The notes under the pieces were generated by a model, which worked only from the letters and a program-made list of their open reading frames with translations, was not told the origin of the DNA and made no database searches. This document shows positions 28,101 to 64,000 of a stretch of DNA of 64,000 nucleotides, one piece after another; position 1 is the stretch's first letter; each line of letters starts with the position of its first letter. The position numbers and the translations under genes are program-made. The stretch is taken from assembly GCA_002633005.1 (NCBI GenBank), contig NMRA01000055.1, forward strand, positions 800,282 through 864,281, read 5' to 3'. The DNA comes from Phoronis australis (taxonomy: Eukaryota > Animalia > Phoronida).

Positions 28101-28967
28101 CTGTAGTCATGGTGATTACGATGCAATGAATGGGTTGTACTACTTGTGTTTAAGGGGTAATAAAAATGATGAGGAAGGCTCATATGGGATTGGGTGGTAC
28201 TGAGATGAAACATTTACGTCACCAACCCGTAATGAATGCACACAGCTCATAGGACATTGACAAACCAGTACAAAGGCAATACGATCACTCCAGCTGTCGG
28301 GTAATGGAGGGACCATATGTTCCCGATAAGGAATTGCTCAACAGTTTTTCTTTATCATTGCTAAAACAAAATCTACTCACGCTAAATGTGTCAGGATATA
28401 ATGCCTGTGAATAATTCTAGAATAGCTAGATTGAACACAAATACTCGAACAAAACTATAATTACTAAATTGCTTTTATTGTCATAAATATGTATGCAAAT
28501 TGTGTATTGTCATAAAAAGACACAGACAAAGGCTATAGCAGATGATTTTTTGCATTGTAATGGATTTAAGTTAAACCTGAATTTTGTCCCGGGGGGGGCA
28601 ACCATAATTTTATATCATTTTTGAAGAGAAAATGTTGAGCAAGGCCTGAAAGTCAGCATGTCAACGTCACTTATCTTGTGGTGTCCACAATAGCCGTTCC
28701 TAATCTACAGTGTCATTCGGTTACTTAAAACAACGTCAATCTACACTTGGCATTTTGAAAATTAAGGATACCTGACCAAGAATTCAACAAGACATTTTCC
28801 ACTTTGGCAGCTTCAAATTTCTGTTGAAGGGTTTCTTTAGGAATGTCGTATGGCCAGGCCAATTCCACGGCATCAAACCCGGCGTTCTTTGCAGCAGCAA
28901 ATCTATCTTCAAGTTGAGGTACCTCTAAGAACATCTTAGTAAGATTAGCTGCAAATTTGAGACTCAT
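19144..28967 (-). CDS. HYI: Hydroxypyruvate isomerase (xylose isomerase-like TIM barrel), 8 coding exons
   Basis: Exons 28967-28772, 26917-26806, 25720-25630, 24056-23981, 22199-22150, 21715-21646, 20497-20363, 19196-19144, all GT-AG and in frame. The protein reads [13 protein letters not shown]...MHIMAG...LIEPIN...[14 protein letters not shown]...[14 protein letters not shown]...GEINY...IGLEYGP...EGLKWL, the Hyi family signature. Confidence 0.95.
21535..21635. mobile_element. Palindromic ~100-bp MITE-like repeat (family A)
   Basis: Arms ATAGTCGGATATAAC...TTTTGAGAACCAG and CTGGTTCTCAAAA...GTTATATCCGGCT surround a conserved TTCTCCACTGAATAA core. Other copies are at 18612-18720, 40586-40687, 41176-41252 and 52774-52881. 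Confidence 0.8.
25868..26022. repeat. Inverted-repeat element (family B); arm-like copies also near 1465, 56146, 56390 and 60226
   Basis: CACGCCACCTGTTGGT...CATGTGACCTG pairs with CAGGTCATATGATGTGACCAACAGATGACGTG. Confidence 0.55.
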
Positions 28968-29026
28968 CTCGCAAGATGTTGACAACTTATTCACGGACAT
29001 ACGAACCAAAGCACCGGCCATATGAG

Positions 29027-29107
29027 AGGTCAAAGGTCATTAGTACAGAAATCACGCAAGATATCGCGGTTTTTGTTGTCAAATGACGTCATTGTTGTAA
29101 AATGGCG
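29027..29107. promoter_or_regulatory. Motif cluster in the divergent promoter between HYI and the membrane protein gene: DR1, CRE, YY1-like
   Basis: AGGTCAaAGGTCA at 29027-29039, palindromic aaTGACGTCAtt at 29082-29093 and AAAATGGCG at 29099-29107, all 60-140 bp upstream of the HYI ATG. Confidence 0.55.
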
Positions 29108-29668: not shown

Positions 29669-30350
29669 NGAACAAAAAAGTGCATTAGTAAAATCAACAA
29701 GTTTTTAAGTGGTCTCAAAAAAACAGTCGGTAAATGCATTAATTTTAGTCTCAGTTCTTCCACGCGTGTTTCTCCCGAGAGGTTAGTACCTAACGTGCAG
29801 ACGAGCGTTCCAAATTGGAACGCTAAGTCCCGCGTGGCAGCGCTGCACGCGAAACAAGATGGCGGACGACCTTTGGAGACTGACGACGAGAGGTAATCGG
29901 ACTATACTATAGGAGCTTCATCCGCCGGACACTTTACCCCTATTATGTCTTACTCTGATTAAAACGTCAAAGTCACGTTGTTATAGGTACTTTTTCCGCA
30001 TAGAGAAATAACTGTAGGAGGCCTTTGTTGTCTTTCATTTCTTTCAACTCGAACAAATACTCCCATAATCAAACTTTTTCTCCGAGCAGTCTTTCATTAA
30101 GTTGTCCAATTCGACAACTGGCCATTTTTACACTGTGCACATTGCTATTTTTATCACGCCGGCCAGGTGTTTTTCATACACATATATCAAGCAGAGACTT
30201 CCAACGTAAATCTTAATCTCTGTACAAAAATATGTATGATCCAAACATTGAGATTTCTCGTGTAATGTTTAACCATATTGCTTGTTTAGTAACTTAAGAA
30301 AATCATTTGTTTCATTTTAGATATAAGAAAGAATGATCACGTAATTCAAT

Positions 30351-33300
30351 ATGGCGAAAGATACTAACAGTGGGCTGCGGGAGTCTTATCCACTCCTCCC
30401 GACCACATCCGGTGAACGCCATGATAAACATGGCTATGTCAACAGAGGTTTTGACTCAAAGATTAAGATCAGTCGGAACAAAGATTTCTGGGAAGACCGT
30501 GAATGGGATGATGACAAGACACTTTTTTCGTACGATAAGAGGAGAGGTACATCCATGATCGCTTACGATTGTTTCCTCGTTCTTCTCGACTACTTACATC
30601 TGTTCTCTCTGCTTCAGTCCCTGGGGCTGCGCTGGCCCTGGCCTCAGGGATGGATTCAGTACTCATCTTGGGTGTTCTTGTTCAACATTGATGTCTGGGA
30701 CTTCTCCAAAGTGTATAGCAATGGCACATACAAGAGTGTGAAAGATTATACCGTCCCCTCGGCTGAAATGCCTTATCACTATTGGCAACTGCTGGTTGGT
30801 TGGCTGGTAGTGCTAGTAATTGCTGCTCTTGTGTTCGCTATCCTTTACATTGTTCTGAACGTACACAAGCACCCATACATGATGGTTCACATTGCCCACC
30901 TGCAGAGGGCGTATGTGGTCATAGTCGAAATCCTCGCACTCCCTCTTGGACTGACGATAGCGCGCATATTCAATTGTAAACCCGACGCATCCGTAACGTC
31001 CGACAAGCAACTGGTTGACGTTAGCAATGGTGTGGAATGTTTCAGTGATATGCACTGGGCTTACATTGCACCTTCATCTGTGGTCGCCTTTCTACTTTTC
31101 CTCGCCTTACCAGTGTGGCTGATATTTAACATCAAACAAGAAATCCTGGCCGCCTCCTCGGACCAGCATGAAGGATTTTTACAACTGAAGGAGACAGAAT
31201 ACATACAGGGCTTGGACATGGTGTTTGTTGTCAAGGGTTACCCGTTGTTCTCCTCATTTAGACTATGGGGTGTCTACTACAGACCTACCATACTCCTCTT
31301 GAAGTTCGCAATCCTTGTGTTTTACGCGACGCTATTCCAACACACATTCGCGCAGTCGCTGATCATTAACTTGATCCTTTTTGTAACGCTTGTAGCGCTC
31401 ATTATTGTACGTCCATTCCGCGTGAAACCGTTCAACTTCATGCTGATTGTCAATTATCTATGTCTCATGGCCAATTGCCTTCTTGGAACGATGCTGACAT
31501 CCTTCGACAGTACCACTGTGCAGTCACCTTGGTTGACTCCAACTTATATGACCTACATTCTGCTCTTGATTAATGGCTTCTGGCTGCTATGCGTCATGGG
31601 TAAGTGATTGTGATCATGATAATTATGTAGAACGTAATATAAGCATCTTTGTATTCCGTCACGTAATGTTTTTGGTATAGTTTTATCATTCTAATTGTCT
31701 ATAGAGTGTGAATTTGGATTGCAATTGTTGATTTTGTTCGCTGTTCTTTAATGTCGGAAAATCATCTGACAAGGTTCAATTTGTTATGTTCCAGAAATGA
31801 ACGAATCGCAGGTGATACTTTATTAGTTTCATTCACTGCATTTTGTTCATGGTTCGTTGAGATCATGAAGAAATTTTGTAATCGCTGATTTGTCTGTATG
31901 TTAAAGAGGTGATGCTTTTGCTTGGTTGCTAAATCTCTGGCAACATTTCCTTATTTCTGAATTTGTACAAGACAATACAATATCCTTGGCATTTTTGTTA
32001 AAATCGGTTAAGAAACAATTTTGCATAATATGGTGTATTATAGCATTTGTATGGTTCTTGCATTGGTGGAGATGGGTTTGTTCAATAATACGGCTAAAGT
32101 GCAAATTAAACCAAATTTAGTGATTGCTTGATTTTCTTTCAGTGTTCCTTGTGTATATTCTCCTGCGTCATCTAAACCTTCTCAAACGTTGGATAAGGGA
32201 GCCTCTGTGGCCGTCCATGACTTCCAGGGGACTAAACAAACTGAGCCCAGAAACGAGAAAGTTCATGCGAGGAATACTCCGAGCTCGCCATCTTCTGGGT
32301 AATTAGGAAACTACTCTTGTCACGACCATTACTGACAATAATGTTCATTTGTTCAGAAATCCTCTTGGTGTTCTCCACAGCCTGTTTTAATTTATCTTGT
32401 GAAGGAATTTGAATTTCCCCCTCTCTAGCTTGACTTATGTGCATCAAGTTCGAAAACTGTATACAACGTGTTCGAACTTCTGTGAGACTAACTATTTCTT
32501 AAGCAGATAACAGGAAATTTTGGATTTTTGACGCCTGTTCAATGCATATTTTCTAATACTTATCTTACAAACTTTCCACAGTATGGACATGAATTTTTTA
32601 TTAAATTTTAGTTTCGTGTTGTGGAGAAAACTGCGTATTGTGTGTTGACAATTCTAAAACTTGAACGATCCTGAACAAAACATAAAAATACGACAATATG
32701 TTATTTTACCTTGTATTATTTAAAGTTAATCTGAGACAGATTGAGCAATTTGCCATTTTGCTCTGCAAGAGTTATGAGTAATCAGTCTCTTCATGTCCGC
32801 AATTTGTAAGTCTTAATTATCACGTTCTACAGAGCGATGCCTTGCGATGCCGCCGATATTTGCGCCAGTCCATGAGCTGTCGCGTCAGATCCAGATCATC
32901 AACGCTTACTGCCGAGAGGCGGAGCTACTCAAAGATCCCATTCACCCCACGCTGTGGGACCTGCTGGATGACATGATCGAGTCCTACTCTAAGATCGCTC
33001 CCAAGTCTTTATTTTCTGGTAAGGACTCCAGTGTCATGTCCAGTTATTTTGCTCATCTTTGATCAACTCCCAACACTGTAGGATGTTTGAGGTGATGTGA
33101 AATAAATACTAATTACTCTTGTGTTGCTCTCTAGTCCTTGTAATCTGACAATAGCTGTAGTAGACTATAACTCCTAAATTTCTGTTATTCATTAATACAC
33201 TGGATTGGTGTAATAAGGATACTCGACACAAAAATGCTCTGTTTTCAACGACTTTGAAAGTACGGTAAAATCTCACCAGTTTCGGACAAAAATAATTTCA

Positions 33301-36300: not shown

Positions 36301-39300
36301 GTCCAAACTTTCAGCACCCAGAGACCCTACTGGACATGGGTCTGGAGTCTGACTCGGACGACGAGTTCTTGGACAATTTGGACTCTTGGGCACAGGAGCA
36401 CCCCCGCTCCAGGGGAGTGAGTGTAAGTATGCAGAGGTGTAGCTGGGACACACAGGGGCCTCTGGAAGGAATATCAATGTCAAGAGCAAGGGATTCTCTC
36501 TGAGATGGGAAAATCACCATTTAGAGTTCTTGGACTGTAGAGTCTTGAACAGAGGAGTACCTTATAGGCCGGTTGTAGTGCAAAATACGTCTGGAGGGTT
36601 TCATAATGTGGTAGGCACAAGTATTGTTGGTTTCTGTGACTGTATGGTTGACCACCTCTTTGACACAGTAATGTCTGTACTACGTCGTACATTAAGTGCA
36701 GGAATTACAGTAAGATTTTTACAATTTGGGACAGTCTCTAAAATTAGGGTCACAAAAATTTCAACAAAAATTGAATTTTCTTGATTCTGTAAAGTGAGTC
36801 ATGGCCAATTTGGTGTTCATGGTATTTCTTAAATTTCGATCACTTCTGCATCAACTGAGCCTGAAAAGAGATTTCGCTGTCAGTTCATTAAATCAACAAA
36901 AATAGCTGCCAAGGCAACCTTTTCGTGCGTCCTATTGATATGTAATATCAAGATGAATGATGGTTTGTCGTTGATGGCAATTCTTGAATTTGGGATTACG
37001 AATATTGCGTAGTTCTAAAATTTGGTACAAGCTGTGACCTTGAGCAAAATAATTAATTTTTCACTTTCCCAAGCTGAAGAATTTTTACTTTAAGTTTTAA
37101 GAGCCATAATAGATGCAGGCAAATGCTCTCTTTTCACAGTGTCATTAGGTACTCGTGACTCTTAAAAGACATTATAATGTAGTCTTGTGGACATTGTCTC
37201 ATTGCTGAGATTAAACTGGATCTCTTTTAAGCATTAAAATTAGAGTGATTTTGTTGTGGAAAATTTAAGTCTGCCGAGTGTGCTAGTCAATTTGTCTTAA
37301 CGTCTGCGGAAAAATGAAATCGGTGAAGCCCAAAAAGTGTTCACCAGTCTTGAATTGGACTTTTCCTGTTCATCATAAACAACTCTCAGATTACATGAAT
37401 ATGAACCCATGGTACAGATGTTGTATTTCAGTTTGTAGGGAAATTCCAATTATTAATATTTGCATGCAGGTTAATCTTTGTTTTCTTTTTTGACAGAGGT
37501 TGAGTGATGACTTGTCAAGATTGTTGGGAGACGACATTTCACTGAACCTGTCGGAAATGATGGCTGGTATACCGAGTCTTCATGACTCATCGTCGGGAAG
37601 TTCAAGGTCAGTAAAGTAGTAGGGGAGGTATTGGTGCAAGATACAGGGTAACACACAGATATGTCTCGAATTGTTTTCCAAAATGTGGTGGAAACGGGAT
37701 GGGTGGAAGCAAAATTCATTGAGAATCATAGAAAATCTGCCTCTCAATGTAAGTCTGTCTTCAATCAATCCATCTTACATTTTATTTATAGGAAATGATG
37801 AGCGTATTTTAGGATGAAGAATGCACTCTAATAAAAGACAAATATCCATTCTTCATTATAGCGGCGGCGTAATGAAATTTCCTTTGTAGCTAGATGGCGA
37901 TTGTGTAATTAGTCGACAGTGCTCTGCATCCCCGTATGGATTTAACACTGTGGGATATTTTCATTTTCTTATAAATTCTTTGTGACTGTCGTGCTGTCAA
38001 ACTGCCAATGTTATGTGGTGAGATATGCAACAGATTCAGGCAAAGACGTCCAACGTCTCGGAATGTCCGTGAATGAAAGAAATTGTGTTTTACCCCTGTC
38101 AAGTCAGACCATCTTTCATACCTGAATTGGAAATTGGGTCAAACCTAAATTGGGTCAAACCTATGATGCTCTTGTGCTCTCACAATCTTAAGATAATTGT
38201 ATGTAGAAGGTCTCCTATAACAGTGATATGAAAGTCTTAGACTCGAACTTTTGTAGCCTTTCCTCATGATGGTTAATTTGGTTATCATCAAAAATGACTG
38301 GTAATATCTTATTAGGTCGGAAAAAATTCGAATTACAAAATGGCTAAGCCACCTTTCTAACTTAACTGTTATTTCTCGTTAATTCTTTGTCACAAGGAAA
38401 GACTACTCTACGATGAATTTGTCTTCTGCCCAATCATCATGACAGGGAACTCCGAGTTACTGTGTCTGAATACTTTTGGCTTGTACTGTATCTGATTTTG
38501 TTGATGCATTCTATCGTTTGCTGAATCCCAACGCGATACGTTGTACTGTGAGATTCTTGTAATCCTCCTTCCACACCAACAACTGCCTCGGTTGTTTTCA
38601 TTGTATCAAAGACAATAGACTCAGCTGTATAGTGGGTCTTCCTGTTGCCCTATTGTGGGCAATATTTCTTCCTGTCCTATTATGGCTCTTCAATTATTTT
38701 TGAAAACTTAAATTTTGAACGCTTAAAAGTATTCAGTGGTCATCCATGTCTATAGAGCTTTCACTCAGCCCCACCTTAAAAATTGTGAAAATTTTTTGTA
38801 GTAAACTAATGTCTCCCTGTTTCTACAGACCTGCCAGCAGCGCCTCTCGACTGGTGCGACCATTAACCTCTAACTCTCATAGAAGCAGTCAACGGTCGGC
38901 CAACTCCCTCAGTATGGATGGACGCATGTCCAGCACCCCGGTAGCTGACCATAAAGCAGGACTGAGACCAGCTTCATCTAAGTCATCACCCAACAGTTCC
39001 CATGGTGCAGATGAACAGCCTCCTCGACCTCGAAGTGTTCAGAGGGTACTCGACGAATCACTTGGAAGACCCAGCAGTAGTCAAGGAAGACCCGTGTCCC
39101 CTCAGGCACAGGAAAAGCGCGATAGTGGACAAAGAAGGCCTGATAGTGCACAGCAAAGGCCTGAGAGTGCTCGGCAAAGACCTGGAAGTGCACAAGAGAG
39201 GCCTGGTAGTGCACAGTCTAAACCCAGAAGTGCGCACTCTAGGCCTGACAGTGCACAACAAAGGGCTGATGATGCCCAGCAACAACCAGAGAGTGTGCAA

Positions 39301-39462
39301 GATAGGCCTGCGAGTGGACAGTCTAGACCTAGAAGTGCACAGTCCAGGCCTGGCAGTGCACAACTAAGACCTGAGAGTGCGCACTCCAGGGCTGGCAGTT
39401 CTAATGTCAAGTCTGGTCAACAGTTGATTCTAGGTACTGCAGAAGATGAATCTGTTGTGTAA
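30351..39462 (+). CDS. Uncharacterised multipass membrane protein (~915 aa, about 8-9 TM segments, helical/acidic cytoplasmic region, RPxSA-repeat tail)
   Basis: Frame-compatible exons 30351-31599, 32143-32298, 32833-33018, 34234-34380, 35619-35723, 36256-36416 (or 36422), 37497-37606, 38829-39462. An in-frame TAA lies just upstream of ATG 30351, the exon acceptor is at 30320, and AATAAA is at 40539-40544. Confidence 0.85.
35355..35461. repeat. Dispersed repeat end (family E); copies at about 3130-3235 and 49050-49145
   Basis: Shared CTTTCAGAAAAT...CCGACTT...CAGACTTGT..ATAAGGTCC...CCTT.A. Confidence 0.55.
36690..37080. repeat. Old dispersed repeat (family C); copies at about 62570-62950, 20880-21120 (reverse) and 57930-58060
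   Basis: Shared blocks such as AAATTGAATT.TC.TGATTCTG, ATAGCTGCCAA, CAATTCTTGAATTTG, AATATTGC.TA.TTCTAAAA and GACCTTGAGCAA. Boundaries are approximate. Confidence 0.65.
39135..39400 (+). repeat. Coding 21-bp tandem repeat (heptapeptide RPxSAxx, about 12-13 units)
   Basis: AGGCCTGA/GxAGTGCACAx units translate to RPDSAQQ RPESARQ RPGSAQE RPGSAQS KPRSAHS RPDSAQQ and so on. Confidence 0.9.
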
Positions 39463-41324: not shown

Positions 41325-43168
41325 TGCAAGTACACTTCTCTAACGTTACATATCTTGATTGACAACATTCACTAGGGTTACCATGGTTACAGAATATTGG
41401 TGTTGAGCGCACACAAACCAAAACTGCAACCATTAATCACAGGAAAGATAAATTGTTCGAATGTCTACCATATCTGCATTTCTGATTGTTTCTGCCAGAA
41501 CACTTCTGCGCCAAAGCATCATTTGTAAAACACAATGCCAAACCACTCGGTGTCTAAACCTTATTAAATTATACTGGCGTACGTATATCTCTGTATGCAC
41601 CACATGTTGTTACAAGCGCTCAATAGCACAACCAAGTGCTCCGTCTCTAAGATAGTGAATCGATACCCTAAAAACCTCCCGCTCTCCCTAACAGGTTTAC
41701 GCTATTCAGTAATATTGCACACAAATTACCAAAAATCATGGTCTACAAATTCGGACAAGCCAGGCACAAAAACTTTCAATTGTTGCACAGAAAGGTGAAC
41801 ACTGACAAGAGCGCACTTCACTAGAAATGAGGTCTACGATTCTACATTTCATTCATCAATTTGACAAAACAACTCAAGAAAGCAAATACACACTGTGTGG
41901 TTTGAATGCAATTGCACCGAAACTGTAATCGGTGTACCAAGTTAGGATAGGTGAACTGCTCGCCAGAAGAGCCCAGTCAAATGCAAGATGACACGGATAC
42001 TTAGGAACTGTTGCAAAAATGCAAACATTTAGGTCTTCTAAATCTTTTAAGCCAAGAATTTAAGACTCTGTATGTAGTCAGATACAACAGATGTAAATCA
42101 GATTCCGCACCAAAAAGGAAGTGAAACGACCTCTGTTGACCAGAGTAAGAACCTGCTTGAAAACACGTCTGCTCAGATGTCTAAATGTTTTCATGACATA
42201 CCTCTGGATGTCACTGCGTGTCTCTAGATGTCATTGTAAGGTGTATTTTCAATTTCTTTCAGTACTGACGTACATCATGTGAAGCCATTGCAATAAAAAC
42301 GTGGGATAATATGCCAATTAGATGTAAAAACGTCACCCCCCATCCGTGAATTTATAACATCAGTATAAGTCTTAAAGAAATAAAAACTATGCGCAGAAGA
42401 AAAATTTTGCAAAACTCTTTAACACAACAGAGCAGTTGCAATGCGACAGGAATGCCTAAAAGCTTGCAAAAATTGAACACAAAAATATTTTTCAAGTTTC
42501 AAATCAGCAGGAATGTTCAAGACTCAAACTCACGATGCGCGAAAGAGCAAAAAACGAATGTGATACCTCGAGAATTTTTTAACGTCTCCAAGAGTCAACT
42601 GAACACAGATCTACGAAGCAAATAAAGCACACTTAGACAGTCATTTTGTACAATACGTACACACAAAACAATCTACCGCAAGACCACGGTTAGAGCTAAG
42701 ACATAAAATTAGTAAATGCACCAATTCCCGATCTAGTGAAAATACCACACGATTTAAACTACCGTACGTGTCACGCTTGCACTTTCCACTTCGAATTTTC
42801 GCCAGTTGGCAGCCATTTTCACTAAATTGCTATATACACCAATAAATTTGTATATTTCCTCTTTGTTAACGACATCAACATACTGGGTGTTTAGAAAACA
42901 AGCTGCTGACTGTAATGTATCTTTTCTTTCCCTGCCCATGACACTAGTCTGCTTATTTTGAAACACCCAGCGTCTTCCAGCCTATATCAGCAGCCTTTCA
43001 ACTATTGAGTCATCAAAGATGACAAGTTATACTCACATATACATACAAACACATACTTTGATTACCGAGATTTTTCACAGCTGCATGATGGGTAAATTAC
43101 ACATGTGAGGTCAAAGTTCATGAGATTATTTAACCTAGACCATTTGGCCAGTGCGCAGGTGGCGCCAT

Positions 43169-46100
43169 CTAGCAGCTACAGTTGTTTTCCTGTGGGTTGG
43201 TATTCTCGGTCAGTCTCGTGCCTTTGTGTTGGTTGTTGACGATCGTCGGGTCCGAGTCAAGACTTTCCGACATTTTATCGCATATGATGTCGACGAGTCG
43301 CTCAAACACAGCTTTGACGTTAATGTTTTCCTTCGCTGATGTCTCAAAGAATTCCAAACCTAAAATTGTTGACATGAAGAAAGTGTGACAGGATTCAAGA
43401 CTGTATAGAGTACAAAAGATAAGCAAGGCACTGTCATAGCAAACTTGTTCTCAGAATGTCTGAATCAGTCTTATTAGTTTTGAAACAGGCTAGGAATGGA
43501 CGGGGTCAGGTAACTTTGACCAAAGCATACCTCCAGTGCAACATGGAATGTTTCACATATTGTACACCTCTAGTTGGTTCCCACTCAGTAACTATGTACA
43601 GTAAAATTTCACCAGTATACGACACAATATGGCTGACAGATGACTTTTTATGTTCACATTTTTTCGTATAAAATAACGTATAGCACAATTAATGGTTTAC
43701 CATGTTCAACTTTTGTATATCTACCTTCCCACAAAATTTTAAAAACTTTGGAGAATTAACGATTCTAGAAGACCACGAAAAAAAGAAACGGGCAATTTTA
43801 GCTGTTATTTTTTCCAAAAGTGTTGATTTCACTACTATAAGACCACGCTGAGAATTGTCTTGGTGTGACCGCTTCCTTAGTAGCATGACCACTAAAAAGC
43901 TTCAAAAACCTTTCTCTTACCTGCATTTCACTGTCCTGTACTGACCATTGCTAGTGTATCTTATTTCACAACAGATCACAAAGAGAAATATTTCGTGACT
44001 GATCATTTAGAGTAATTCACACACATTTGAAATACTTCGATTGCAATGTTTAATTACAGAAAATGAGGCCAGAATAAAAATGTTAAAATTTCTGAATTGT
44101 GTAAGATATGATGAATGAAAATCTGCTTGCAACAATTCTGATTATGTCACAAATAATAAACCAAAACCTGAACTCAACATCTCACTAGATCATCATTGAA
44201 ATGAAAGAGCAACGGACTGTCTGCCTTTAAAATTTTGCAACCTAGAGGAAAGCCGAGTCTCGGTTGCCTAGGGAGGTTAGGTTCCATTGAGTGAACAGCG
44301 TGAGTCGTGCATTGAGGTGCAGTCTGGGTAATTTTATGGATTTACCATTATCCTATAGTCAACCCACATACATATTATGTGAATGGAATAGGTAATAATC
44401 AGGATTCCAAGCGATAACGCATAATTGAAGCCGGATAAGAAAAAGGATACTTTAAGAAAATTGAAGCATACCAGCATCCCCATAAATACTAGGAATGTTG
44501 GTTAAATCAACACAATGTTGAAACAGTTGCCAATTTAGGATACATGTCAACACGTAAATATTAGCATGCACATTCAAAATTTCCGTGAAGTTGCAGTTTT
44601 TTGATTATGAATTGTCATGCCTACACAATGACAAGTGACCAGGCGAAGGATACAACCATGTAAAACACACATCCAGGTTAGATATACTAAGTTTGCTAGG
44701 AAACTACAGACAAAATGCAACTACTTAATAATCTGCTCTCTGGTTATAAGGTTCCATGCCCAAAGCCAACTGTATCATGTATAAGTCGATTTGGTAGTGG
44801 TGAATTTCGCTAACTATGTTACCACTTTAGAACAGTTAAGCGGGTTCATGGTAATGCCGTTCAACTTAATTCAATTAATTGCTTCAAACCTGTCAACGAA
44901 CTTCTATTCATTTACAAATTTTTGGCCCGATTCATTTCTCAGCAGAGTGCGTTAACCAAGACCACTACAGCAATGACTACACTACACACATGTGTAACAG
45001 GACATAAAGAAACCTTAACTGCAGTGTACATAATGGCCGTATAAACATTCAGTTCACTGTCAAAGATTAGTATGAAATACAGTGTGGAGAGCTTTGCAAA
45101 TTTAAACACGTTTATTACTGCTTTAGAATCGGAGACCTCCACAAGAAGATCAAATCATGAAATCTGCATAGTCATGCGTGTGCAGAACGTTTGAAAGTGA
45201 ATTATCTCCCCTCAATCCTGCAGTCAGCCATTAATCCATCCGGAACACCTGGAGTATTTTCGTAGCCTCAAATTTCGCCTCTAGGGTGAACATTGTCTGC
45301 GAGTGTGCGAACTTCAGTCATATGTTAAGTCAAACGAGGGAATGACTGGCCATATGACTATAATTCGGAGAGACGCCGAAATCACTCAATTCCAACTGAA
45401 AGTTTTTGACGCATAGGAGTCGGTTCTGGATGCCATTAATCTAATGCTGGCAGTGGCAAAAGCAGAAAAAGTAAAATATTCAGAGTTACTTAAAGTCACT
45501 TGAAAAAAGATTCAAGGTGACAGTCTTTTACACAGACTTTGTTTAAAGTAGCAAGCCACGCACGGAAACAGTCAAATGCATGAGTTATAGTAGAAAGGCA
45601 ATTAATTCTACATGCAGATTAAAAACCTGTTGGCATTGCATTAGTTGATCAAGAGGAAAGAAATTCAAAGAAAAATTTTGCAATCTCAAATTGCTTACGG
45701 CAATTGCCTATATCCGTCACAAAGGATCCATTTTCTTAAAGTATTACTTATAGACATATAAAAACTAAATGTTTTTGAAACCCCTGAGGGTCACAGAAGC
45801 TTATGTCCACAAAATGATACTCAGAGATGTTCCTAACCGTGTGACTGCATTTTTTCTAAAAATCTTAATTTTTCACCGAGACCAACATAATTTCCCTAAG
45901 CAAAAATAGTTTTTGCATGAAACAAATTCTGTTCCATTATTCTATCAGCTACAAAAGGGATTTTAAGGCCTTATAGCTCAAGAACTCCACTGTAAAAATG
46001 TAAGACATCAAAACAGAAGTCTCACTTTTTGACAGATGAGCTCTCAGACTAAAAGACCTCAAAAAAAAATTTCAGACTTCCTTTCGGAGCCTATAGAATC

Positions 46101-49100
46101 AAAAAAAAAACAATTGCAATTTTCAAACCAAAGAATTCATATTTGTGGAAAATATGAAGATCTACAAAAATCATGATTTTTTAGATAAAAACACAATAAA
46201 GTGATTACAAACATCAAGGCATTGCTTTAGAACACAGAATCAGATTCCGTTATCATCAAGGACATGAAAAATGCAGTATAATGAGTCTGCTATTGATACG
46301 TAAAAGATTATTTAAGAAATTCAATCCTGAATAATGAAAGAGACCTATTAAGGCGTTCAGTCATAGAAGTGAAATTTCAAGTAGAGACGACTAATCCATT
46401 ATTCTAATTGCTCAGAGACTAAACTGAACAATTTTTAATAACGATATCAATTTTGCTGTAAGAAATTTATATAGATTACTGCATGTTAAAGTTATAACCA
46501 CCAGGTAAGCGCCGTCAATAAAGCCGACAACCACGGACAAAGCAAGCACTTCAGACACAAAGTGAGAGGACAGATATCACCCGCAGCACCATCACCATGA
46601 CTATGACCTCCACGGCCGTGACTCGCCTAGTTATTACCTAGCTGGTCAGCCAGATGCTTGCCCCGTTCCTTCGACACGACCCTCTCGTCCTCCAAATCGC
46701 ATTTGTTACCCACTAGCACCACCTGGGCATTGTCCCATGAGTACGTCCTAATCTGTGTGGACCTGGAAAAGACACGTCATCGACCGTCTACAGGGGACCT
46801 GTGTGTCATACCCTACCTAGACGATCCGCGAGTTGCTTCGCGCGCTCCGTCGAAATGACTCGCTCGTCCTCAAGGTCACACTTGTTGCCGACAAGCACGC
46901 AGCGGGCGTTGTCCCACGAGTACATCTTGATCTGCGTGCACCTGCAAAAGACACGTGACACCGGCCGTCTACAGGGGGTACGACGCTGCGTCCTGCCACC
47001 TAGTGTTGCCGGTGGATATCATGCCAAGGTGTTCTCGCACCCACCAGGGATCAACCTCATCAAAGAACAAATGACAATGTGACTCAACGAATTTTCTGTT
47101 TTGAATAGTCACTAACATTTAGCAACTGTACTTTCAAATCTGGCAGTATTCGAATTTTGAGAAAAATGTCTCCAAAGGTGAGCAGTTGGAGACAAAAGTA
47201 TGGGTTTAGGTTATCTATGAGGAACTGCCACAGGTTAGGTAGACTCCCACCTGGGCATGACTGACCACACGGCAGAGAGAAAGACGAGAGAGAGAAGAAA
47301 GCTCAGCGAAGGACAACAGATAACTAAAGAGCAGTGGCGCCAACATAAGTCACTCCCGAGGCCAGACCTACCTAACTCCTCGGCAAGCTTGCGGCCCGCC
47401 TTGGTCGAGACTACGCGCTTGTCTTCCATGTCGCACTTATTTCCAATGAGCGCAACGGTGGTGTTGGCCCAGGCATGGGTATTAATATTGGTCACCCTGG
47501 AGCAGACAACAGAGGGAGCAACTAAAACACGGTGGTGCGTGCGTAAGTGCACAACAAAGGAAAAGGAGGTAATTCAGTCTATGCTCACTAGGTGGTGCCA
47601 TCTTGCACAAGGATGAACAGTTCGGAATGGGAGGAACCCAAAAGCTGTCTACGTATGCTAGAGGCATCTGAGGGACTAAACATGCAATGGTGGAGAGAAG
47701 GGCAAACAAAAAGTTGTGTATCAAGGTGAGCCATTTTAGCTTGTGTTTACAATAGCAGGAGATGAGCTCAAATGAATGGAGTGGTCAGACCTTATTAGCA
47801 CAGGTAAAGAGTTGTATTACCAAGACTAAGGATAGGGGTCTCTGCAGGTACATATTTGGCCGTGTTTAAATCAGGGAGGCTAGAAATCACCAACAATTAA
47901 ATTTATGCGAAATCAGTGAGGGACAATAAATTATTTTTCCACATAAATTTTGGTGTACAAAATCACGCAGCTGTGCAAAATAAGTGGAGAATTACCGTAT
48001 TTCCACACAAGGTGGCAGCAGGGATCATGGTTCCACACAACTACCAGCAATCTTATACGTAGCATTTTACAAAATAATACACCATAATTATGTACTTGTC
48101 AAATGAATATAAACGTTTCAGTTTTAGACCTCCAAATGAGTTACGAGTTTCTGACTTTTCTTCCTCGTGAAGACTGAAATCAATCTCAGCGCGGAAAGAA
48201 CATCAACATAGTAATTCTCCACTTTTTGCCAAATTTGTCATTTTCCCCGTTTTCAAAGGCCAACTACTTTATTGCAATTAATGGAAAATTTACCAAAAGT
48301 TTGTTTTGTGACATCTACACAGTACAAACCATGCTAAGTAAATGACTAAAACTTTCCTAATCATTTAATTCTGTGGACAAATTTGACAAAACAGAATTTT
48401 ACCTGTTGGCCATTTCGTGTGTTTAACAAGTGAAAAATTACCGCAAATGAGGATATTTAAATCAGGCTCCATTTAGAACAAAATCTGGTCTGTGTACCTA
48501 GCACTACCTTCAACATTTCATTTTTGCCAATAATTTCATGAAACAAATTTTAAAGAAATAGTTTCAACTTATTCCGAAAACGATCCTCAATCACCAGGAT
48601 GTCAAACTGTTTTCAAAATAAATCAGAATTTAGTTTAGGAATTTTAAAGCCTAATGTCCAAATTTTGATGGTATATCACAAATTTAAAACTTTTGGATAT
48701 AACTGCACCGTTCTATAAAATGCTGTGAGCACTTGCTTTCAAAATGTTGAACTTTTGCATGATAGGGTATCAAAAATAGGACTTTTTAAGATTTTTATGA
48801 AAATAATTAAAAGCTACATAAAAGGAAAATGAAACCATAATTCAAATCTATTACAGAATTTTTGAGATTTCATTGTGAAAATAATAATTCAAAAAACTAT
48901 AACAGCCTTTTTGAGATTTCAATGAGAACATTAATTTTGTATAACAAGAAATACCATTGTTTTGCAAAAAATTGACAAAAATACATGGTTACGTGACCCA
49001 ACTAGTGGCAGACTGGTGCATAGTCAATATCAAATTCTACAGCCTTAGTTTGTGCTTTCAGAAAATTTATACTTTTTCCGACTTACAATCAATAGTTCTG

Positions 49101-52100: not shown

Positions 52101-55100
52101 CCACCGTTTCTTAGTTGCGGGTGTGTAAACGGCCACTTGACACCAATCATCTTGCGTCAGGTCAGTTGCGCCTTGTGTCAAAAGCTAATGTCCATTTTTT
52201 GCATCAAGGGTAATAAGAATTTGAAAACTGTCAAACGGTAATATTGGCAATAATTTTTGTGCAAGAATTACTGGATGTTATGTCTGACTTGGTGAGCGAC
52301 TGAGCGACGGCGTCTAAAACCTTGCTCACAAGTGATTGAGGGGCTTTTAAAAAAAGTCTGATACCTTGGCTGAAATTGATGCTTTTCTTAACGTAGTAAG
52401 GTGCAACTTTCAAAATCATTCAGGTACAGGCCAATACCAAGTATATCTTTTACATGAACAGTGAATCCTATAATGCCAACTTTTGGAAGCATCAATACAA
52501 AAAAAAACATAACTGCAATGAAATTCACATCTAGTTTTGACACAAAATATGAACTCCGTTGTAAAAATATTGTCAATTCTTTTACATTAACACACTGTAC
52601 AAGAGAAAATGATTTTACAACGATCAGCGTCACTTCCTAGGATATCAAGCCACGATGTTAAACAGATACTTGTCTCACAAGTTTGGAGAATCCTTTGAAT
52701 ACACAAGCAAGCAAAATGAACTTACCACAAAGAACAAATGAGTGCAACACTACTCAATGAATAAACAATGGCAATAGTCAGTTACAGGGTCTCTCTTCTC
52801 CCCCCTGCATTTTGAGAACCAGTTTGATGCCTGTTACTCAGTGGAGAAAACTGGTTCTCAAAATGCACTGTAAGTGACTATAAAGCAATTAAGCAAATGA
52901 TAAAGCTTGCTAGACACTGAACAAAATTAATTTGTGTTTCTATGGCAACAACAAGAAGAAAAAGCGAAATGAATCTAAAGTATGTGTTCTAAGATGGCAA
53001 GTGAACGCCATACACAAAAAACAAAGATTCTCGAAAATTGTACAATCGAGCTATAAAACAAGAATGGTCTTGCATTGTATGTCTGAGACGCGATGGATTC
53101 GAATTAAAACACTATGTCAAAGCAAAAACATTGATTCCAAACCCACACTCATCATTGCGAAAATGATCAATTTAAGAACTTGTTAGTCAAAAATTTGGAT
53201 ACGATTTTGGTAATAGACACAGAAGTTGACATTTGATATCTCCCTGAATTACCATTAGAGGAAATACTTGAATGATTTAGGGAAATCTTCATCATATATG
53301 GGCAAAAGGTGGGCATTACATATGAGCCAGCATGTTTTCAAATGAACTGTTCACTTACAGTCAACAACAGTGTATTGATTTGCAATGAATGTATGTGTAC
53401 AGCTATGTAACTGTTATTGGCCTACTTGTCTGCAACAGAGCACCTTCCCTACAAGGACCCCGGGGAACTTAGCCTACAGATTCCCGGAAGCACCGATAGC
53501 TCAACCATGCCCTGCGACGTTGTTTACCATATTCCGGGAAAGCTCTATCACGTTTCAAGATTAGAGAGAGAGTGAATATTTTTTTCCGTGGTTTCATTAA
53601 AATAAAACTGCTGCCCAGATACCTCCCACATCACTGATTGATCATCTTCAACAAGGAATGAGGAGAGGAGAGTTGAACAGCCAAACATAACTTCAAAAAC
53701 ATCTCAACTTCGACTGGAATATGAATCGGCTGAATAATTTGTAGCAAAAAGCACTTGATCTCTTTGTAGTTTTACGCCATTGTGAATAATTCACCTTCAT
53801 CACTGACAGGGAAATATTTAAATCATCTATGTCTTCAAGTTCTGTGACAAGACGTAATATTTATTCCCTTTTCATTGCGAGTAGACTTGTCTAAGCATTA
53901 TTTGCGATTGCCTTACATGACGTGATCGATAAATTATAAGATTCTATTGATTTTCAACAAGCGTAAAGTGGCCACTGAGACAGTAACTGAGCGAGGGAAT
54001 ACCATCCCACGATTACACTTAGGGTACAATGCATCAAGCATCGTTGTACATAATACACATGCGCAAATGCCTTATAAATCAATAAACGTTCATTGGCTTG
54101 TTTCATAATCCTTTGAAAAATTATTCCGCACACTAATTGCCACCAACGCATCTGCAGGGAAGGCAACCAGAAACGTTAGGGACGCCGGATTCAATAGTTT
54201 TACAGGGAAATTAAAACATTAAGTCAGCGTGAAAATGAAACAAGAGCAGCACAGACGTCAGACAGGCGTCCACGTGTGCATCGGAAATGGCAAAGATATG
54301 AGGGATGCTCACTTTTTCAAACTTGCTCATCCACTGCAGTGAACATGACTATTGTGCGCAGCACTAGTCATGAGAAAATTGACCAATTCAATCTCGTTAG
54401 ATGTTGAAATCGCTGCAAAGAAAACTAAAATTACCACTAGGGGGCACTGTAGCAGTCGGATCAATCCAATAATTGACACCAGTCATGTTTACCTTAATAG
54501 AATCTCATGTCATGACGATTCTTGAGACAATGGTGTAACACAATTGCCACTAGGCGGAGCAGAAGTAGTAGACACTGTCCAAAATTTAATGTCAGCCAAG
54601 TTTCTGTTAAACGAAACACCTGCATCCAAGTTTACAGTTCTTAAAACTAATAGGCAAAAAGATGGACGGCAGAAACAAACACCAAAATATAAAAATTGAT
54701 AATAGGGGGCACAGCAGTATTCGGCCCAGTCTGAAAAATTATGGATAATATTGTCTTCTCACTAGAGACACATATGCCATTTATTTAGATCCAATACATT
54801 GAACTGATTGACTTGCTAGATGTAGAGGCAAACGGAAAATTTTAAAACTGCCACGCTAGTAATCAGATCTGTTCCAAAGTTTCTTGTCACCCGTCATCAA
54901 CACCATGGGAAAACATCTGCCAATTTTCATGAGGATCTTGCGAGGGGTTAAGGATATACAGCAAAAATGAAGGCAGTATGCTCCAAATGTGTACATGTGG
55001 GTACATATACGAATACTCACATTACATGGCACTCTTTACCCAAGAGAAAAACGACTGGCATTTTGCTCACGCAAGATTACTCCATGGGAGAAAAAGTCTG

Positions 55101-58100
55101 ACCAGTAAAATATTCTCCGGAGGGACCAATCACAATAGGTGACGTCTCAATACCAAAATGGATCAAAATGGATTATTTGAATCTAGTTTAAAGTCCACAT
55201 GACAAGCCCAGCGAATCAGCTTCTAAGAGGGTCGAGCCGTGTGTGTTACAGTAAAAAGTTGAGCATCGATAAACACGACAAGAGATCTATTTGGACGAAA
55301 TCAGTGGGCTCAAACACTCAAAATAATGTTAGATAGGAATACTGGCTTAATGCTAACGTGCTCCCCAAAAGTACAGACAAGCAGTCCAATTTGACATAAA
55401 AGGTAACCACGAACACTAATACCCTAATAGTTCCCAAAACAATGTCAAAACTGGTCAAGCGATTGGAAGCAGAATTTTCAAGTGTATAACCTCATAGTGA
55501 AGACCGCACACACAGGAATTGAGTTTCGTAAGCTTATGCGCCCGATGCAACTCAATGAAAAACTCGAAACACTTGAGGAGTTCAGCTGTCGGAATCATTG
55601 AAATCAATGTGTTTGTCTTGATCACTTTCGCACATGAATGACAAATGTTCCTACGTACCTCACATTAAAACGACATTCTACTATCATCTCCACACTGCTA
55701 ACTGACAGCTAATCAAATTTAAACTTATCACGTATTTATCAAGTTGTCAACATTTGAGACGAGCATTTTGCTGGACAACGCCTTGAACTAGTGTCTAGGC
55801 TTGCATTTTTAAGAGACCGAAAACGCCTACCAGTCTTGGACAGCTTGGAACGATTCTTCATTGGTGACGTCGTACATCAGTATGAAGCCCATGGCTCCTC
55901 TGTAGTAAGCGGTGGTGATGGTGCGGTACCTCTCCTGGCCAGCCGTGTCCTACAATACATTCATTAATAATGGCCATTAAAAATCTTATCGTTTTACAAG
56001 TATACTAGTAATTGTCAATGCATATATGTGTGTGTGTGTGTGCATGCGCGCGCGTGTGTGCGTGCGTGCGTCAAATAATACACCCCTTCATTTGTATTTG
56101 ACATCAGCGTTAATACATTATTCGTTCAAAAAGAATTACAAGTCTTCTTACACGCCATGTCGGTCACATCCCGTGATCTAAAGTTTAAGTCTGAAGATAT
56201 CTCTGCCCCCACCTGGGACTTTCTACAATCCATGTAGATGCTCTAGTCCACTGAGCTACTTGGACCACCAGTCGATTGTAAAAGATTTATAAGAGACATC
56301 TCATCCCAGCTAGAGAGTTTGCATACATGTATATAATTGTGCTGTTAAATCAGTGCATTCAAATGGTATAAGCAAGAATTATAAGTCCTCTAACACGCCC
56401 TCTGTTGGTCAAATTACATGACCTAGATCTAAGTTGTACTCCCTTCAGCTAAACCAAGTCATAATTTTTCCACAGACACCACTATGTCATTGTTACTGCT
56501 CACACCCAGAGTTACACCGCTAAAATCCAAGTTCTGGGTTTTAATCGCTAAAGGTCTGTCCCATTAAATTTGTTTCATATATTACACAAGGCTGTGACGT
56601 TCAAAACAACATTACCGATTCAGGGTGGGTTGTAGCCGTAAGGTCAAATCAGCTTAGTTGGTTCTGGCGTGTACCCCAACTCATTTAAAAACTCGCGCTC
56701 AACGACTAAAAAATTCGCCAGCCTGCTTCTATGTCTCGGTGTATTTGTACAAAGGTGTGTAATCACATAAGAGTAAGGTTTGAAACATCATGATTTCCCA
56801 GCTATTCTCCCTAGTTTCAGGATATCTTAAAAAGTTAGCAACTAAGAAAGAACCACACCGCCAACTCAGATTTTCAAGACACAGACCATAACCAACTATG
56901 ATTTTTTGGCCAAACCATACTAGAGTTAAAGCTTTTTATACTGTTGGACACCTTGAGTTATAAGCTTTAACACTGATTTGAAAGTCATGACTGCTTTTGC
57001 ACAAACAGTACACATTATAGTAACCAATAATCAATTGTTAACAGTAATCAGTTGCTGAAGGACACAGTTAGATGGTCAACATTAATAATCAACGGGGGGG
57101 GGGNGGGGGGGGGGGGGGCATGTGCCCCCAATAATTTTCACCTTAATACAGGTCTGGCTTTCGTAAGTTTTGAGACTTCTGCCCTGGAAGAACACACTAA
57201 TGGCATAATGAGAGGTTCTCAGGACAACATCCACGGATTATGACAAGTCAGGCCTAATAGACTGGAATTAGATTTCACATCTTGCTAAGGAATAGACCCT
57301 TATTTTTGTAGTTTGAGAAAAATGGTTCTCCAAATTCTAATTACTACAGCTCATGACACACTGTATCAGGGTTCTGGGATTGTAACAACAACTGTTTGCA
57401 CAAATGGCTGAACATGAAAGCACATCCTACACATGTGTACATTTACTCAGCTTTGTGAGCAGTGAGCTGGTTGCATCAGAACCACGTTTTCTCAGACAAG
57501 TATTGACACTATTGATGTTGACTGGGGTATTTTTCAGTCTGTCAAGGTCTATTGAAAGGTCTTCCTTTTGACTGTTCAGGGACCCGCTGTCTTGTATGCC
57601 TGTCTTGTATGCTGCCCACGATAATCAAAACAGACAAGCTCCAGACATCAGGGGTCATTGTTTCTTCACAGCCTGAATTCCCTTAAGTGAAAATTGATGT
57701 CAAAACAAAATCACTTTATGCCCATAAATTGACCAGTGTAACATAAACACAGACCTCTTCCCCAGCCCAGCTTGTCATTTCAAGCTCTGAGTTTGAAGTA
57801 AACAGCCTGCCTACAAAAGTGATAACAAAGCCGCCAGCAAAAGTGACTCTTGTAATCTGGACTTACTGCCTTTTTGATCCTAGCAAAAGNGGGTGCCGGA
57901 TAGGAATATCCTGACTGTGAGAGCAAGATGTAGGATTAGCATTCTAAAATTTGGGACATTGAAAATTTTATTATTTTACTCAAGGTCGACCTTGAACCAA
58001 AAATTTTACAAATAGACAATATTGGCCGTCCCAAATTCAAGAATTACGATCAATTTTTACCGTGAAATAACACTTTAACTGGTACTCTTTGCTGCGCCAT

Positions 58101-61100: not shown

Positions 61101-63262
61101 CAGAAGTAATCGTCCGAGGACTGTAGGATCTCCCAATGGTTTTCCACGGGAGTGAAAGGTTATAGACCTTATGCAAGCTTATGCAAAGAGATGACAGTTT
61201 TCTTCCACTGCCCTTGTTCGGTTTGGAAACCCTCAAGAGGACTATTGGTTCTGGTCATGTGTGTTACGATTGCGGTGGTTAAAAAAGGACACCCAACCCA
61301 TTTCAGCTAACATCAGGTGATGTTGCGGTAAAAAAACTCCGAAACTCATAACACAGCTTAGTGAATTCTAGTACAGTGTTAATTTAGACGTAACTTTTAA
61401 TCAATTTTTATTGCCGTCACTCGACTGAACACAACAAAATCAATTAACGTCGCATTGTATGAATGCCAATGTTCGAGTTCCATGCAATTCACGAACCATT
61501 CTGCAAAGCAAAGGGAGCTAGCTGACATTAACCAGGCTATTGATTATGTCTAAATGGCAAAGAATATATTCACATGCGAAGAATGCTTCACTGATTCACC
61601 AGGGAAATCTAGACGAAGAATAACACGACACTGTGCCAATTAGAAAAGTGCATGAGTAGATAGCAGGTCGAGTGTTCGCGGCAAAATCGTAGGAGTGTCG
61701 TAGCTCGTCGACTCCACGTCTACAAATCAAATGCACGCGATTTGCAACATTAATGAAGTATCATGGCTAATTAGAGACTGATGAAAGGAAATGACTGAAT
61801 AGTTACGGTAAGAGATTTCCAGCGAATTTCCGGTCTACTGCGTCAAATTCAAAGTGTAGCAGGAGCACTTTCAAGGAACGGTGATTGCGTAATGTGACGT
61901 AACAGAAATAGCCAGGAAGAGAGATACGACTTATTCATGACACAAATTTTGGAAGATTATTCAGTGTTGTTAAATCACACGGAATACTCTTAGATCATAA
62001 GGCCACTTCATGCTAGTTTTTCTTTGCGGAATATTTTCCAGAACCTCTAAAACGTGTCGCATGAATGCAAAATCTGCGGGATTATTATTCGAGTTTGATC
62101 AAGAAAAACTTTTGCTGAAAAAAATTTACAAAACGGCTCGCATGGACAAGTTTAAAAGCATAACGCCTCAGTTACAGAGATCAAAGGAGATTAAAAACAT
62201 TAATAGATTCGTTTCTTTCATTTTTTAAAAAAAATTGTGCTAATTTCCTTTTACCCAAATGGATGTCCATTTTTGTTTCCATGTAAACGTTTGAAACCAT
62301 AAATGAACAAATGGAACAAAAAAAAAACGCATTTCTTGATAAGTAGATTTATAAAACCGTGCGTGGTACACACTGCAAGGGACAGGCAACATTATGGAGA
62401 GAACTGATATTAATTACGACAACGTTCCTGATTATTAGACACCATGACAGAAATTGTGAAAAATTAGCCTTACTAAATTATTAGTTCAGTGGAAGGAAAT
62501 AACATCATCATAAAAGTGTGAGTACAGCGGTACAAGTGTTCAATCATTATGACAAGTTTATTCCAACAAAACAATGTCAATGAGATTTAGAGCAAAAATT
62601 CTCCAGTTTGGGCAGTTTCTAAAATTTGAGACACTGAAATTAAAGCCCAAATTGAATTATCATGATTCTGAAGACTGGAACACACCTGATGTTGGTGGTT
62701 ATCATGTTTCTCAAACACTGGATGATGCGATTTGCATTAGAGTCTAAAAATAGACTTGGCAGTTCATCAAGTCACAAAAAGATAGCTGCCAACGCTACAT
62801 TTCAGGCATCCGCATAGAGTCTATCATCGAGATGAACGAATGTTTGTTGTTGCTTTCAATTCTTGAATTTGAAACCACCAATATTGCTTACTTCTAAAAC
62901 TCGATACAAGCAAAGACCTTGAGCAAGAAATTTAATTTTTGCAAAGCCTAACAAGAGACTTTTTGTCATAGTCACGCAGTTCACTTAAACTGTCAAAGTA
63001 CAAAGGAGATTTAAACCACCTGACAGACATCACTCACCCATATCTGTAGTTTGACCCGTTTATCCTGTCGGAACACCGTCTTGACTTTAAAGTCGATGCC
63101 GACTGTACTGACGAAGGCGGACGTAAACGAGTCGTCGGCGTAACGGAACAGGAATGATGTCTTGCCCACGCTGCTGTTGCCGATGATGAGTAGCTTGAAC
63201 ATGTAGTCAAAGTTCTGGTCGGCGGCATCTTTTTGGTAACGTGAGTCGTTTGCGGAAGCCAT
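43169..63262 (-). CDS. RAB3: Ras-related protein Rab3 (219 aa), with three alternative versions of coding exon 3
   Basis: Exon 1 63262-63038 (MASANDS...[42 protein letters not shown]...LQIW), exon 2 55949-55831 ([22 protein letters not shown]...), one of exons 3a/3b/3c, and exon 4 43359-43169 ([13 protein letters not shown]...NCSC*). It ends in a CxC prenylation motif. The ATG directly follows a splice acceptor, so a 5' exon lies further upstream, probably outside the window. Confidence 0.97.
46638..46762 (-). CDS. RAB3: Rab3 exon 3c (most canonical variant)
   Basis: 125 nt, cttttccag|...|gtaata; (W)[41 protein letters not shown](G). Confidence 0.92.
46817..46941 (-). CDS. RAB3: Rab3 exon 3b
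   Basis: 125 nt, cttttgcag|...|gtaggg; (W)[41 protein letters not shown](G). Confidence 0.9.
47372..47496 (-). CDS. RAB3: Rab3 exon 3a (divergent variant)
   Basis: 125 nt, tgctccag|...|gtaggt; (W)[41 protein letters not shown](G). Confidence 0.85.
52774..52881. mobile_element. MITE-like family A copy
   Basis: ATAGTCAGTTACAG...TGCATTTTGAGAACCAGTTT...AAACTGGTTCTCAAAATGCA CTGTAAGTGACTAT. Confidence 0.8.
56023..56071. repeat. Alternating purine-pyrimidine microsatellite (TA/TG/CG)
   Basis: atatatgtgtgtgtgtgtgtgcatgcgcgcgcgtgtgtgcgtgcgtgcgt, about 75 nt upstream of the Rab3 exon 2 acceptor. Confidence 0.9.
59800..60050. repeat. Old dispersed AT-rich repeat (family D); copies at about 63340-63590 and 22380-22590
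   Basis: Shared AAATTTGAA...AACAATGGCCAAAATT...TGTTTGTTGATG.CA.CCATA...TTCCGTCACA.TGT.TTCTAATTT. Boundaries are approximate. Confidence 0.65.
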
Positions 63263-64000
63263 CTGGAAAGGAAAGAAACCGAGAAGGCGTGAATGAGTGA
63301 AAAAACACACCAGCAGAATAACACCATAATGAAGACTACGATAAAGTTTCCTCAAATTTGAACAGAAACAATGGCCAAAATTAACATTTTTTAAAATTTT
63401 TTTTCTAATGCTCACTGTATTGACATAAATGTTCAAATTTCATTTTGTTTGTTGATGACATCCATAATACCATATACAAAGTTTAAAAAAATCAAGCAAA
63501 ATTGTCTTCTTGTTTACTCTCGTTGAAAATTTTGATAGTATAAAATTTTACTATTCCGTCACATTGTGTTCTAATTTGAATGAAGTATAACGCGCTTGTT
63601 TTGTTCCAGTAACCTTTCACTTATTTAGCACAGAATACGGCCGACGTGAAATTCAATTTTGTCAAATTTCTATCTACACAGATATAAAGATCAAGCAAAC
63701 TTTAGTTCGTAACAAGTCTGTTTCGCAGGGCGTAGATGTCATAAACCAACTTTTGGTACACTCTACACCATTTATAAGAAAGTTATAAGCTTTTGAAAAA
63801 TTAAAAACAACAATTTTGGTAATTATTTTCATGTAAAATAAATAGAGAATACCACAATAATTGAACATGATGTATTAGTTCATCGACATTCGGTACGCTA
63901 CTTCCTTCATTCTCCAACGGGAAGACTGCTACTATAGGACTGTGAATCAGTACATATGATCAAGCAATAAGGATTGTTATTTGTTGAGCAAGCCATTCTA

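Follow-up and report, generated by a model that had tools for sequence, protein, structure and literature searches.

The Rab3 gene of Phoronis australis, which encodes a switch controlling vesicle release, raises the question of whether an alternative internal exon can change the partners of an otherwise constant GTPase. The gene lies on the minus strand of the window, as we call the whole 64-kb stretch of DNA analyzed here, and its exon 3 is present in three tandem copies of 125 nt (3a, 3b, and 3c). A sequence-only reading of this DNA had proposed that 3a rewrites the surface on which effector specificity depends. We favor a milder reading, at a probability of roughly 0.6, in which each sampled mRNA carries one exon 3 copy and 3a, likely very old, is predicted to give a GTPase that still works, its SF3/CDR2 loop and the surface of helix 4 being retouched and its affinity for some partners likely shifted.

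All coding exons are on the minus strand. Coding exon 1 (63038..63262, 225 nt) encodes the P-loop and switch I and matches Pfam Ras with an E value of 2.8e-15. Coding exon 2 (55831..55949, 119 nt) encodes DTAGQE, switch II, and the start of helix 3; it is common to all isoforms and is spliced in RNA to 3a, 3b, and 3c. The exon 3 copies follow at 47372..47496 (3a, THAW type), 46817..46941 (3b, MYSW type), and 46638..46762 (3c, the canonical TYSWDN type and the major exon), with introns of 430 nt between 3a and 3b and 54 nt between 3b and 3c (46763..46816). Exon 3a spans the end of helix 3, the SF3/CDR2 loop, strand 5, NKxD, and helix 4. The last coding exon, exon 4 (43169..43359), carries the SAK motif, helix 5/CDR3, the hypervariable tail, and CSC with the stop, and its RNA joints place it in all isoforms. 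The Rab3A switch regions, residues 49 to 61 and 76 to 96 (PMC9396396, in part), both fall in the common exons 1 and 2, and CSC is encoded by exon 4, which bears out the earlier statement that the isoforms have their switches and C-terminal tail in common. A pyrimidine-rich AG acceptor lies immediately upstream of the Rab3 ATG (63263-63270), and in the Rab3 of relatives the N-terminal extensions vary, coming from alternative upstream exons.

The three copies are homologous, equal in length, open, identical in phase, and flanked by canonical AG and GT splice sites, as tandem-duplicated exons are. Neither tblastn nor a scan for AG, 125 nt, and GT found a fourth copy between exons 2 and 4. Any one copy yields a 219-amino-acid open frame ending in CSC (the 3a, 3b, or 3c isoform), none or two shift the frame, and all three lead to an early stop. 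Amino acid identity among the copies spans 46 to 76%, with 19 of 41 residues matching between 3a and 3b, 22 of 41 between 3a and 3c (74/125 nt; 19 residues differ), and 31 of 41 between 3b and 3c. Third codon positions match in only 7 of the 22 codons shared by 3a and 3c, so that synonymous sites are saturated and the 3a frame must have survived a long divergence.

Several other features were seen in the window. In Rab3 intron 2, a 40-nt motif occurs three times with CACTAGGGGGC-like cores (54427-54731, repeat D2), and we take it to resemble a CTCF-type site. A short element with perfect 20-nt inverted arms and very high read depth (52805-52867) is probably a MITE-like repeat. On the plus strand, a 420-amino-acid single-exon stretch encodes a multipass membrane protein with a weak, below-cutoff match to PF06011 TRP (30345-31607), one exon contains about 10 seven-residue RPxSA repeats (38719-39462), and another is rich in proline and lysine (1725-2777), the latter two having no Pfam match. 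A minus-strand exon at 28725-29036 has no Pfam match at an E value of 0.001 and presumably resembles the N terminus of hydroxypyruvate isomerase.

Exon choice was assessed in X3, X4, and X5, three runs of stranded raw RNA reads that come from a single study; 18 to 19% of each was read. These match the last exon of the window without listed differences and cover introns too, and they are therefore from this species or a very close one. All six junctions that link each copy to exons 2 and 4 were present. In the order X3/X4/X5, reads joining exon 2 to the copies numbered 6/2/11 for 3a, 0/6/13 for 3b, and 19/12/80 for 3c, and reads joining the copies to exon 4 numbered 6/3/10, 0/2/9, and 17/29/65, respectively. 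The 290 junction reads, in which a single molecule may count at both junctions, divide into 38 for 3a (13%), 30 for 3b (10%), and 222 for 3c (77%). Against 141 copy-to-exon-4 reads, the full joint table for 43150-47700 listed no joint between 3a and 3b, 3a and 3c, or 3b and 3c at its threshold of at least 3 reads. Every copy thus joins exon 2 on one side and exon 4 on the other, with no listed joint from copy to copy. This makes 3a a genuine exon of minor use that is mutually exclusive with the others, and its inclusion, which the sequence-only reading had presumed, is seen at both flanking exons. A rare skip from exon 2 to exon 4 may exist beyond the joints listed, as five weaker joints lie outside the whole-gene list.

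The view of 3a as an artifact of assembly or as a dead exon is refuted by the spliced reads on both sides of it in all three raw runs, and a frame kept intact despite saturated synonymous sites and homologues in other phyla also speak against it; we regard this explanation as extremely improbable. Differences in usage among the same three runs are only suggestive (p of 0.013 on reads, and of 0.23 and 0.04 on distinct starts). Two further runs consisted of contigs, which are incapable of showing absence: X2, from a second organism, gave the 3c-exon 4 joint alone, and X1 gave no exon junction. Pieces of X2 at 45138-45476 were considered as conserved elements and rejected, being in or beside a high-depth repeat.

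How exclusion might be achieved was considered at the level of both product and precursor. Products containing 3a and 3c, or 3b and 3c, stop 75 nt upstream of the last junction, whereas the product containing 3a and 3b stops at the junction; nonsense-mediated decay (NMD) thus fits the first two and not the third, and it probably could hide 3a+3c and 3b+3c but not 3a+3b. The 54-nt intron probably hinders joining of 3b to 3c. Exclusion is likely enforced by that intron together with NMD of 3a+3c and 3b+3c, possibly aided by helices in which the donors of the minor exons are concealed.

The candidates for such helices involve a 13-nt element (repeat D8), of which one copy precedes the 3b acceptor and another the 3c acceptor. 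The stretch upstream of the 3b acceptor (46961..46985, minus strand), where the first copy lies with its flanks, is predicted to pair with the donor region of 3b in a candidate splicing silencer helix of -29.9 kcal/mol, a value equaled by 0 of 500 shuffles. The second element copy (46784-46796), within the 3b-3c intron, is complementary to the same donor region at -21.8 kcal/mol (26/500 shuffles as good). For 3a, an intronic stretch at 47225..47252 (minus strand) pairs as a candidate silencer helix with the donor region at -31.8 kcal/mol (4/500), and for the major exon 3c no comparable donor partner was found (best, 65/500). Exon 3b is flanked by two intronic element copies, and their common complementarity to the 3b donor region (46961-46985, 46781-46799, and 46805-46830 together, minus strand) suggests competing helices. 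These duplexes came from 15 tests on windows chosen after looking at the long-range scan, and whole-region RNA folds were no better than shuffles (z of -1.07 to 0.24; -0.58 for the 3a region), so the donor-hiding helices are a lead only. In Dscam1-type exclusive splicing, one common docking site pairs with a selector beside each exon. A docking/selector scan across the 12.5-kb pre-mRNA gave no common long-range partner that beat shuffled queries.

We then turn to the protein, for which residue numbering is that of Rab3A (W125, N135). On the minus strand, the three exon 3 sequences and the lysines in EDKR and KAGRK of 3a are as first read. Exon 3a aligns without gaps to the Rab3A chain of 1ZBD. 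Compared with 3c, it has the changes Q119N, R121N, Y123H, S124A, D126A, A128T, and Q129T, and further E142K, E148K, R149A, and an altered helix 4 end; Q152 is lost as well as D126, Q129, and E142. Retained are W125, N127, G134 to D138, E140, R143, G150, and L153-A154, and the G motifs (with NKCD), switch regions, and C-terminal CxC are all intact in the 3a isoform. The SF3 loop reads YSWDN in 3b and 3c and HAWAN in 3a, from which the canonical YSWDN is absent. The altered residues map to the helix 3-strand 5 loop in the 1ZBD alignment, in agreement with a low-confidence AlphaFold2 model (mean pLDDT, 46) for which a THAW isoform of Littorina (P0020) stood in for 3a, and which gives rough helix and strand limits only. 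This loop is the RabSF3/RabCDR segment (CDR2), as had been stated (PMC9308819 and PMC4552854, each in part). The description of the surface as rewritten went too far: Y123H, S124A, D126A, Q129T, and E142K are real, but W125, N127, and NKxD are kept, and the loop is retouched only.

Comparison with 28 distinct THAW segments separated general from local features. Because these were picked by motif, columns 122 to 125, including W125, are fixed by construction. Outside them, N127 was kept in 26 of 28, D126 and Q129 in 1 each, and E142 and Q152 in none, so that the acid was lost at 142 in 28/28 and at 126 in 27/28; N135, K136, D138, E140, R143, and L153 were invariant. The wider set of 29 distinct non-YS segments had His123 in 27, and the pocket aromatic W125, kept in 3a, was replaced only in a heterobranch-type exon (P0030, P0042). 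The sequence-only reading had called 3a more basic, and this is true of the window, in which 3a has a net charge of +1 and 3c of -1, a difference of two charges. As a feature of the exon type it does not carry over, since the EDKR lysine (K142) is not general and position 142 is serine in 17 of the 28. THAW exons are less acidic than their TYSW partners in 7 of 9 species pairs, mostly by 1 to 2 charges, and range in net charge from -3 to +3. What is conserved is therefore not a basic patch but His-Ala and the absence of two acids.

His-Ala stands in the same columns in fungal Sec4/Rab8, and it does so in Rab27A as well. With 3a alone as query, three fungal Sec4/Rab8 proteins were all that came out of 6 candidates. 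Against solved structures, nine Rab3 chains ranked at the top (41 to 46 bits), with Rab3A the closest at 46 bits and Rab8A at 29.5; an origin of 3a by transfer or conversion from Rab8 was rejected, as Rab3 chains score far higher. Judged by sequence, the gene is Rab3 and the 3a isoform is a variant of Rab3.

In the strongest form of the hypothesis, 3a brings an outright switch of effector specificity, with rabphilin-, RIM-, or Noc2-type partners lost or gained. The changes do lie within CDR2/SF3; the SGAWFF motif of rabphilin binds the RabCDRs, and RabSF3 overlaps CDR2 (PMC9308819, in part). By structure alignment, with two-residue tags allowed for, the W125 column corresponds to Y122 of Rab27A and S111 of Rab8A, and the D126 column to C123 of Rab27A. 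In Rab27A, Y122 stacks against the WF motif of the effector, binding is strongly inhibited when Y122 is mutated, and C123 flanks the WF pocket (PMC8864489, 10.64898/2026.10.13.758952). An outright switch could thus draw on the alignment of D126 with C123 and on the conservation of H123 and of D126 loss across phyla. However, W125 and N127 are retained in 3a, and CDR1, CDR3, and both switches are common to the isoforms. The fly Rab3 mutant WDN124-126AAA, altered in this same SF3/CDR2 loop, showed normal localization and full rescue of the rab3 active-zone phenotype, scored as Brp distribution (PMC4552854, in part), which indicates that Rab3 can carry out one of its main functions without this loop intact. 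Some Rab3 effectors bypass the CDRs altogether, as Rep15 does not touch them (PMC9308819, in part). We consider an outright switch unlikely.

Our preferred reading of a retouched loop asks for less. Exon 3a would retain the nucleotide motif (NKxD, E140, and R143) and the pocket tryptophan W125, place His-Ala where helix 3 ends (123-124), and lose D126, Q129, E142, and Q152. Rather than a new repertoire of effectors, the predicted outcome would be a quantitative change, either in the kinetics of GEF/GAP action or in the binding of rabphilin/Noc2-type effectors. Such a change is likely because the SF3 loop rims the SGAWFF pocket and adjoins switch II, and the keeping of aromatic W125 with altered neighbors suggests tuning. 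A shift in partner affinity of some kind seems somewhat better than an even bet, and GEF/GAP, not rabphilin, RIM, or Noc2, could be the partners whose binding changes.

The last possibility can be put in a narrower form, in which effector binding stays the same and 3a affects only the GDP/GTP cycle, by way of the loop after NKxD and of the contact between helix 3 and switch II, whether at the step of GEF, GAP, GDI, or intrinsic exchange. Phosphorylation of Rab8A S111, a charge change in the SF3 loop, impairs action by the GEF Rabin8 and by a GAP and leaves the binding of Mical-1, an effector, unimpaired, and the loop adjoins switch II and affects GEF/GAP action (10.1101/764019, in part). Within 3a, the most constant change, Y123H, ends helix 3 in the low-confidence model, and E142, lost in all 28 THAW segments, lies beside the G4 motif. 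Yet the Rab8A argument is an analogy between Rab subfamilies alone, and the same SF3 loop is a documented rabphilin contact. This explanation overlaps the preferred one; our judgment that it is improbable covers the case of regulation only.

The age of 3a was approached through its relatives. A query with the last exon, which is blind to exon 3, was followed through the best 120 of 403 matches; among the matches listed, the window's exon is closest to molluscan and nemertean Rab3 (84 to 85%). A noncanonical exon 3 was present in 18 of the 120 listed, always with His123 (16 H-A/G-W and 2 H-T/A-C), the named carriers being scallops, oyster, abalones, limpet, Gigantopelta, caenogastropods, chiton, Physella, and Lingula. 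Cluster look-ups added more oysters and the nemertean Tubulanus, and profile and HMMER searches added gene models from a rotifer (Adineta) and a flatworm (Macrostomum). The THAW-type exon, which the sequence-only reading had proposed to look for in relatives, is thus found in molluscs, Lingula, a nemertean, and others. Haliotis rufescens has TYSW, MYSW, and THAW isoforms all annotated (XP_046338157.1, XP_046338158.1, XP_046338159.1), Tubulanus polymorphus has an annotated Rab3 isoform set with a THAW type (XP_074644076.1), and Lineus has an annotated MYSW isoform. Models from Nucella and Batillaria fuse a THAW exon upstream of the TYSW exon, the same order as in the window.

More divergent arrangements were also seen. 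Rotifer-type models (Adineta steineri P0177, plus P0176, P0261, and P0262) have MYSW followed by a close TH(S/C)WEK exon, THSW in Adineta, which is the reverse of the window's order. A merged Macrostomum lignano model (P0263) has two tandem variant copies of exon 3, QAW and HAW, with the canonical one absent. Isoform X2 of Physella acuta (P0030) and P0042 have a far more diverged alternative exon 3 that keeps His123 and has Cys for W125, and Physella has GSKSD in place of GNKCD. Scorpion-type Rab3C-like models (Centruroides P0203, P0259, and P0260) have His123 in HSWDN, apparently a separate change. HAW was absent from the named arthropod, priapulid, and hemichordate matches listed in the last-exon search and from 13 of 13 members of an echinoderm/hemichordate cluster.

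The THAW exon is likely a very old alternative exon of spiralians, and a single origin would be the simplest reading, which the tree supports via the motif columns only. An all-column tree separates THAW from YSW exons (89/86) because of those columns; when they were removed, in a 36-column tree with the Sec4 and Physella rows left out, THAW exons were not one group (17% of 200 bootstrap trees). The trees do not settle monophyly of the 3b (MYSW) type. In nine species pairs, THAW exons averaged 63% identity and TYSW exons 94%, and faster evolution of this kind would also fit relaxed constraint. This is the ground for regarding 3a as a duplicate that is tolerated, mostly redundant, and without a biochemical role of its own, along with its minor usage (13%), the TYSW-only forms of Octopus and two annelids among the matches listed (15/58 cluster members), and the much changed, Trp-less version of heterobranch snails (P0030). 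A redundant copy, however, would be expected to decay or to retain canonical residues, and His123 is present in 27 of the 29 non-YS segments and the exon has been retained in molluscs, a brachiopod, and a nemertean. We think redundancy very unlikely. At the other extreme, spiralians may for more than 500 million years have drawn a second secretory-Rab identity from a single Rab3 gene, the SF3 loop being reset to the Rab8/Sec4 His-Ala state to engage different effectors or GEFs in particular cells and competing donor helices setting the choice; this is possible, but we consider it rather unlikely.

The closest counterparts are gene models named "ras-related protein Rab-3 isoform X2/X3" in molluscs, Lingula anatina (XP_013381633.1), and Tubulanus (XP_074644076.1), which have the same exon boundaries, the T-H-A-W motif, and common flanking exons. 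The window's 3a is more diverged than these, reaching at most 63% identity (to Lingula), with N for Q119 and N for K121. The isoforms of relatives are automatic annotations, and a literature search, with most subscription papers outside its reach, found no published description of an alternative Rab3 exon 3. Studies of mollusc neurobiology and secretion that treat Rab3 as a single protein may mix isoforms.

An internal, mutually exclusive duplicated Rab exon occurs in RAB6A/RAB6A', in two copies with three residue differences near switch II, and the partners are reported to differ. The portion of PMC3338420 available did not confirm that exon duplication. Relative to RAB6A/RAB6A' as so described, 3a and 3c differ at 19 of 41 residues, outside the switches. 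The human RAB37 substitution derived from a tandem exon duplication likewise involves old homologous alternative Rab exons whose differing residues form a surface patch proposed to change partners, and all three "RAB3" matches in the part of the human catalogue of such exons at hand are RAB37 (PMC8373072). Rab3 is a different Rab, in which the copies number three, are internal, and encode SF3/CDR2, NKxD, and helix 4. A literature search for loop 7 chimeras gave nothing. In the Rab3A-rabphilin-3A complex (PDB 1ZBD) and the RabCDR model, the exon-swapped loop is CDR2. TYSWDN is the reading in the listed Rab3B and Rab3C chains of vertebrates and in Rab3 from rat and fly, and the window's variation comes from splicing, not gene duplication. 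Few synaptic proteins are as invariant as Rab3. Its diversity in vertebrates arose through duplicated genes; in spiralians it appears to come from splicing, at the loop that the RabCDR model names a specificity determinant. As natural, long-selected chimeras with identical switches and tail, the isoforms would offer a clean test of whether CDR2 governs effector choice or GEF/GAP kinetics, which the fly alanine mutants left undecided.
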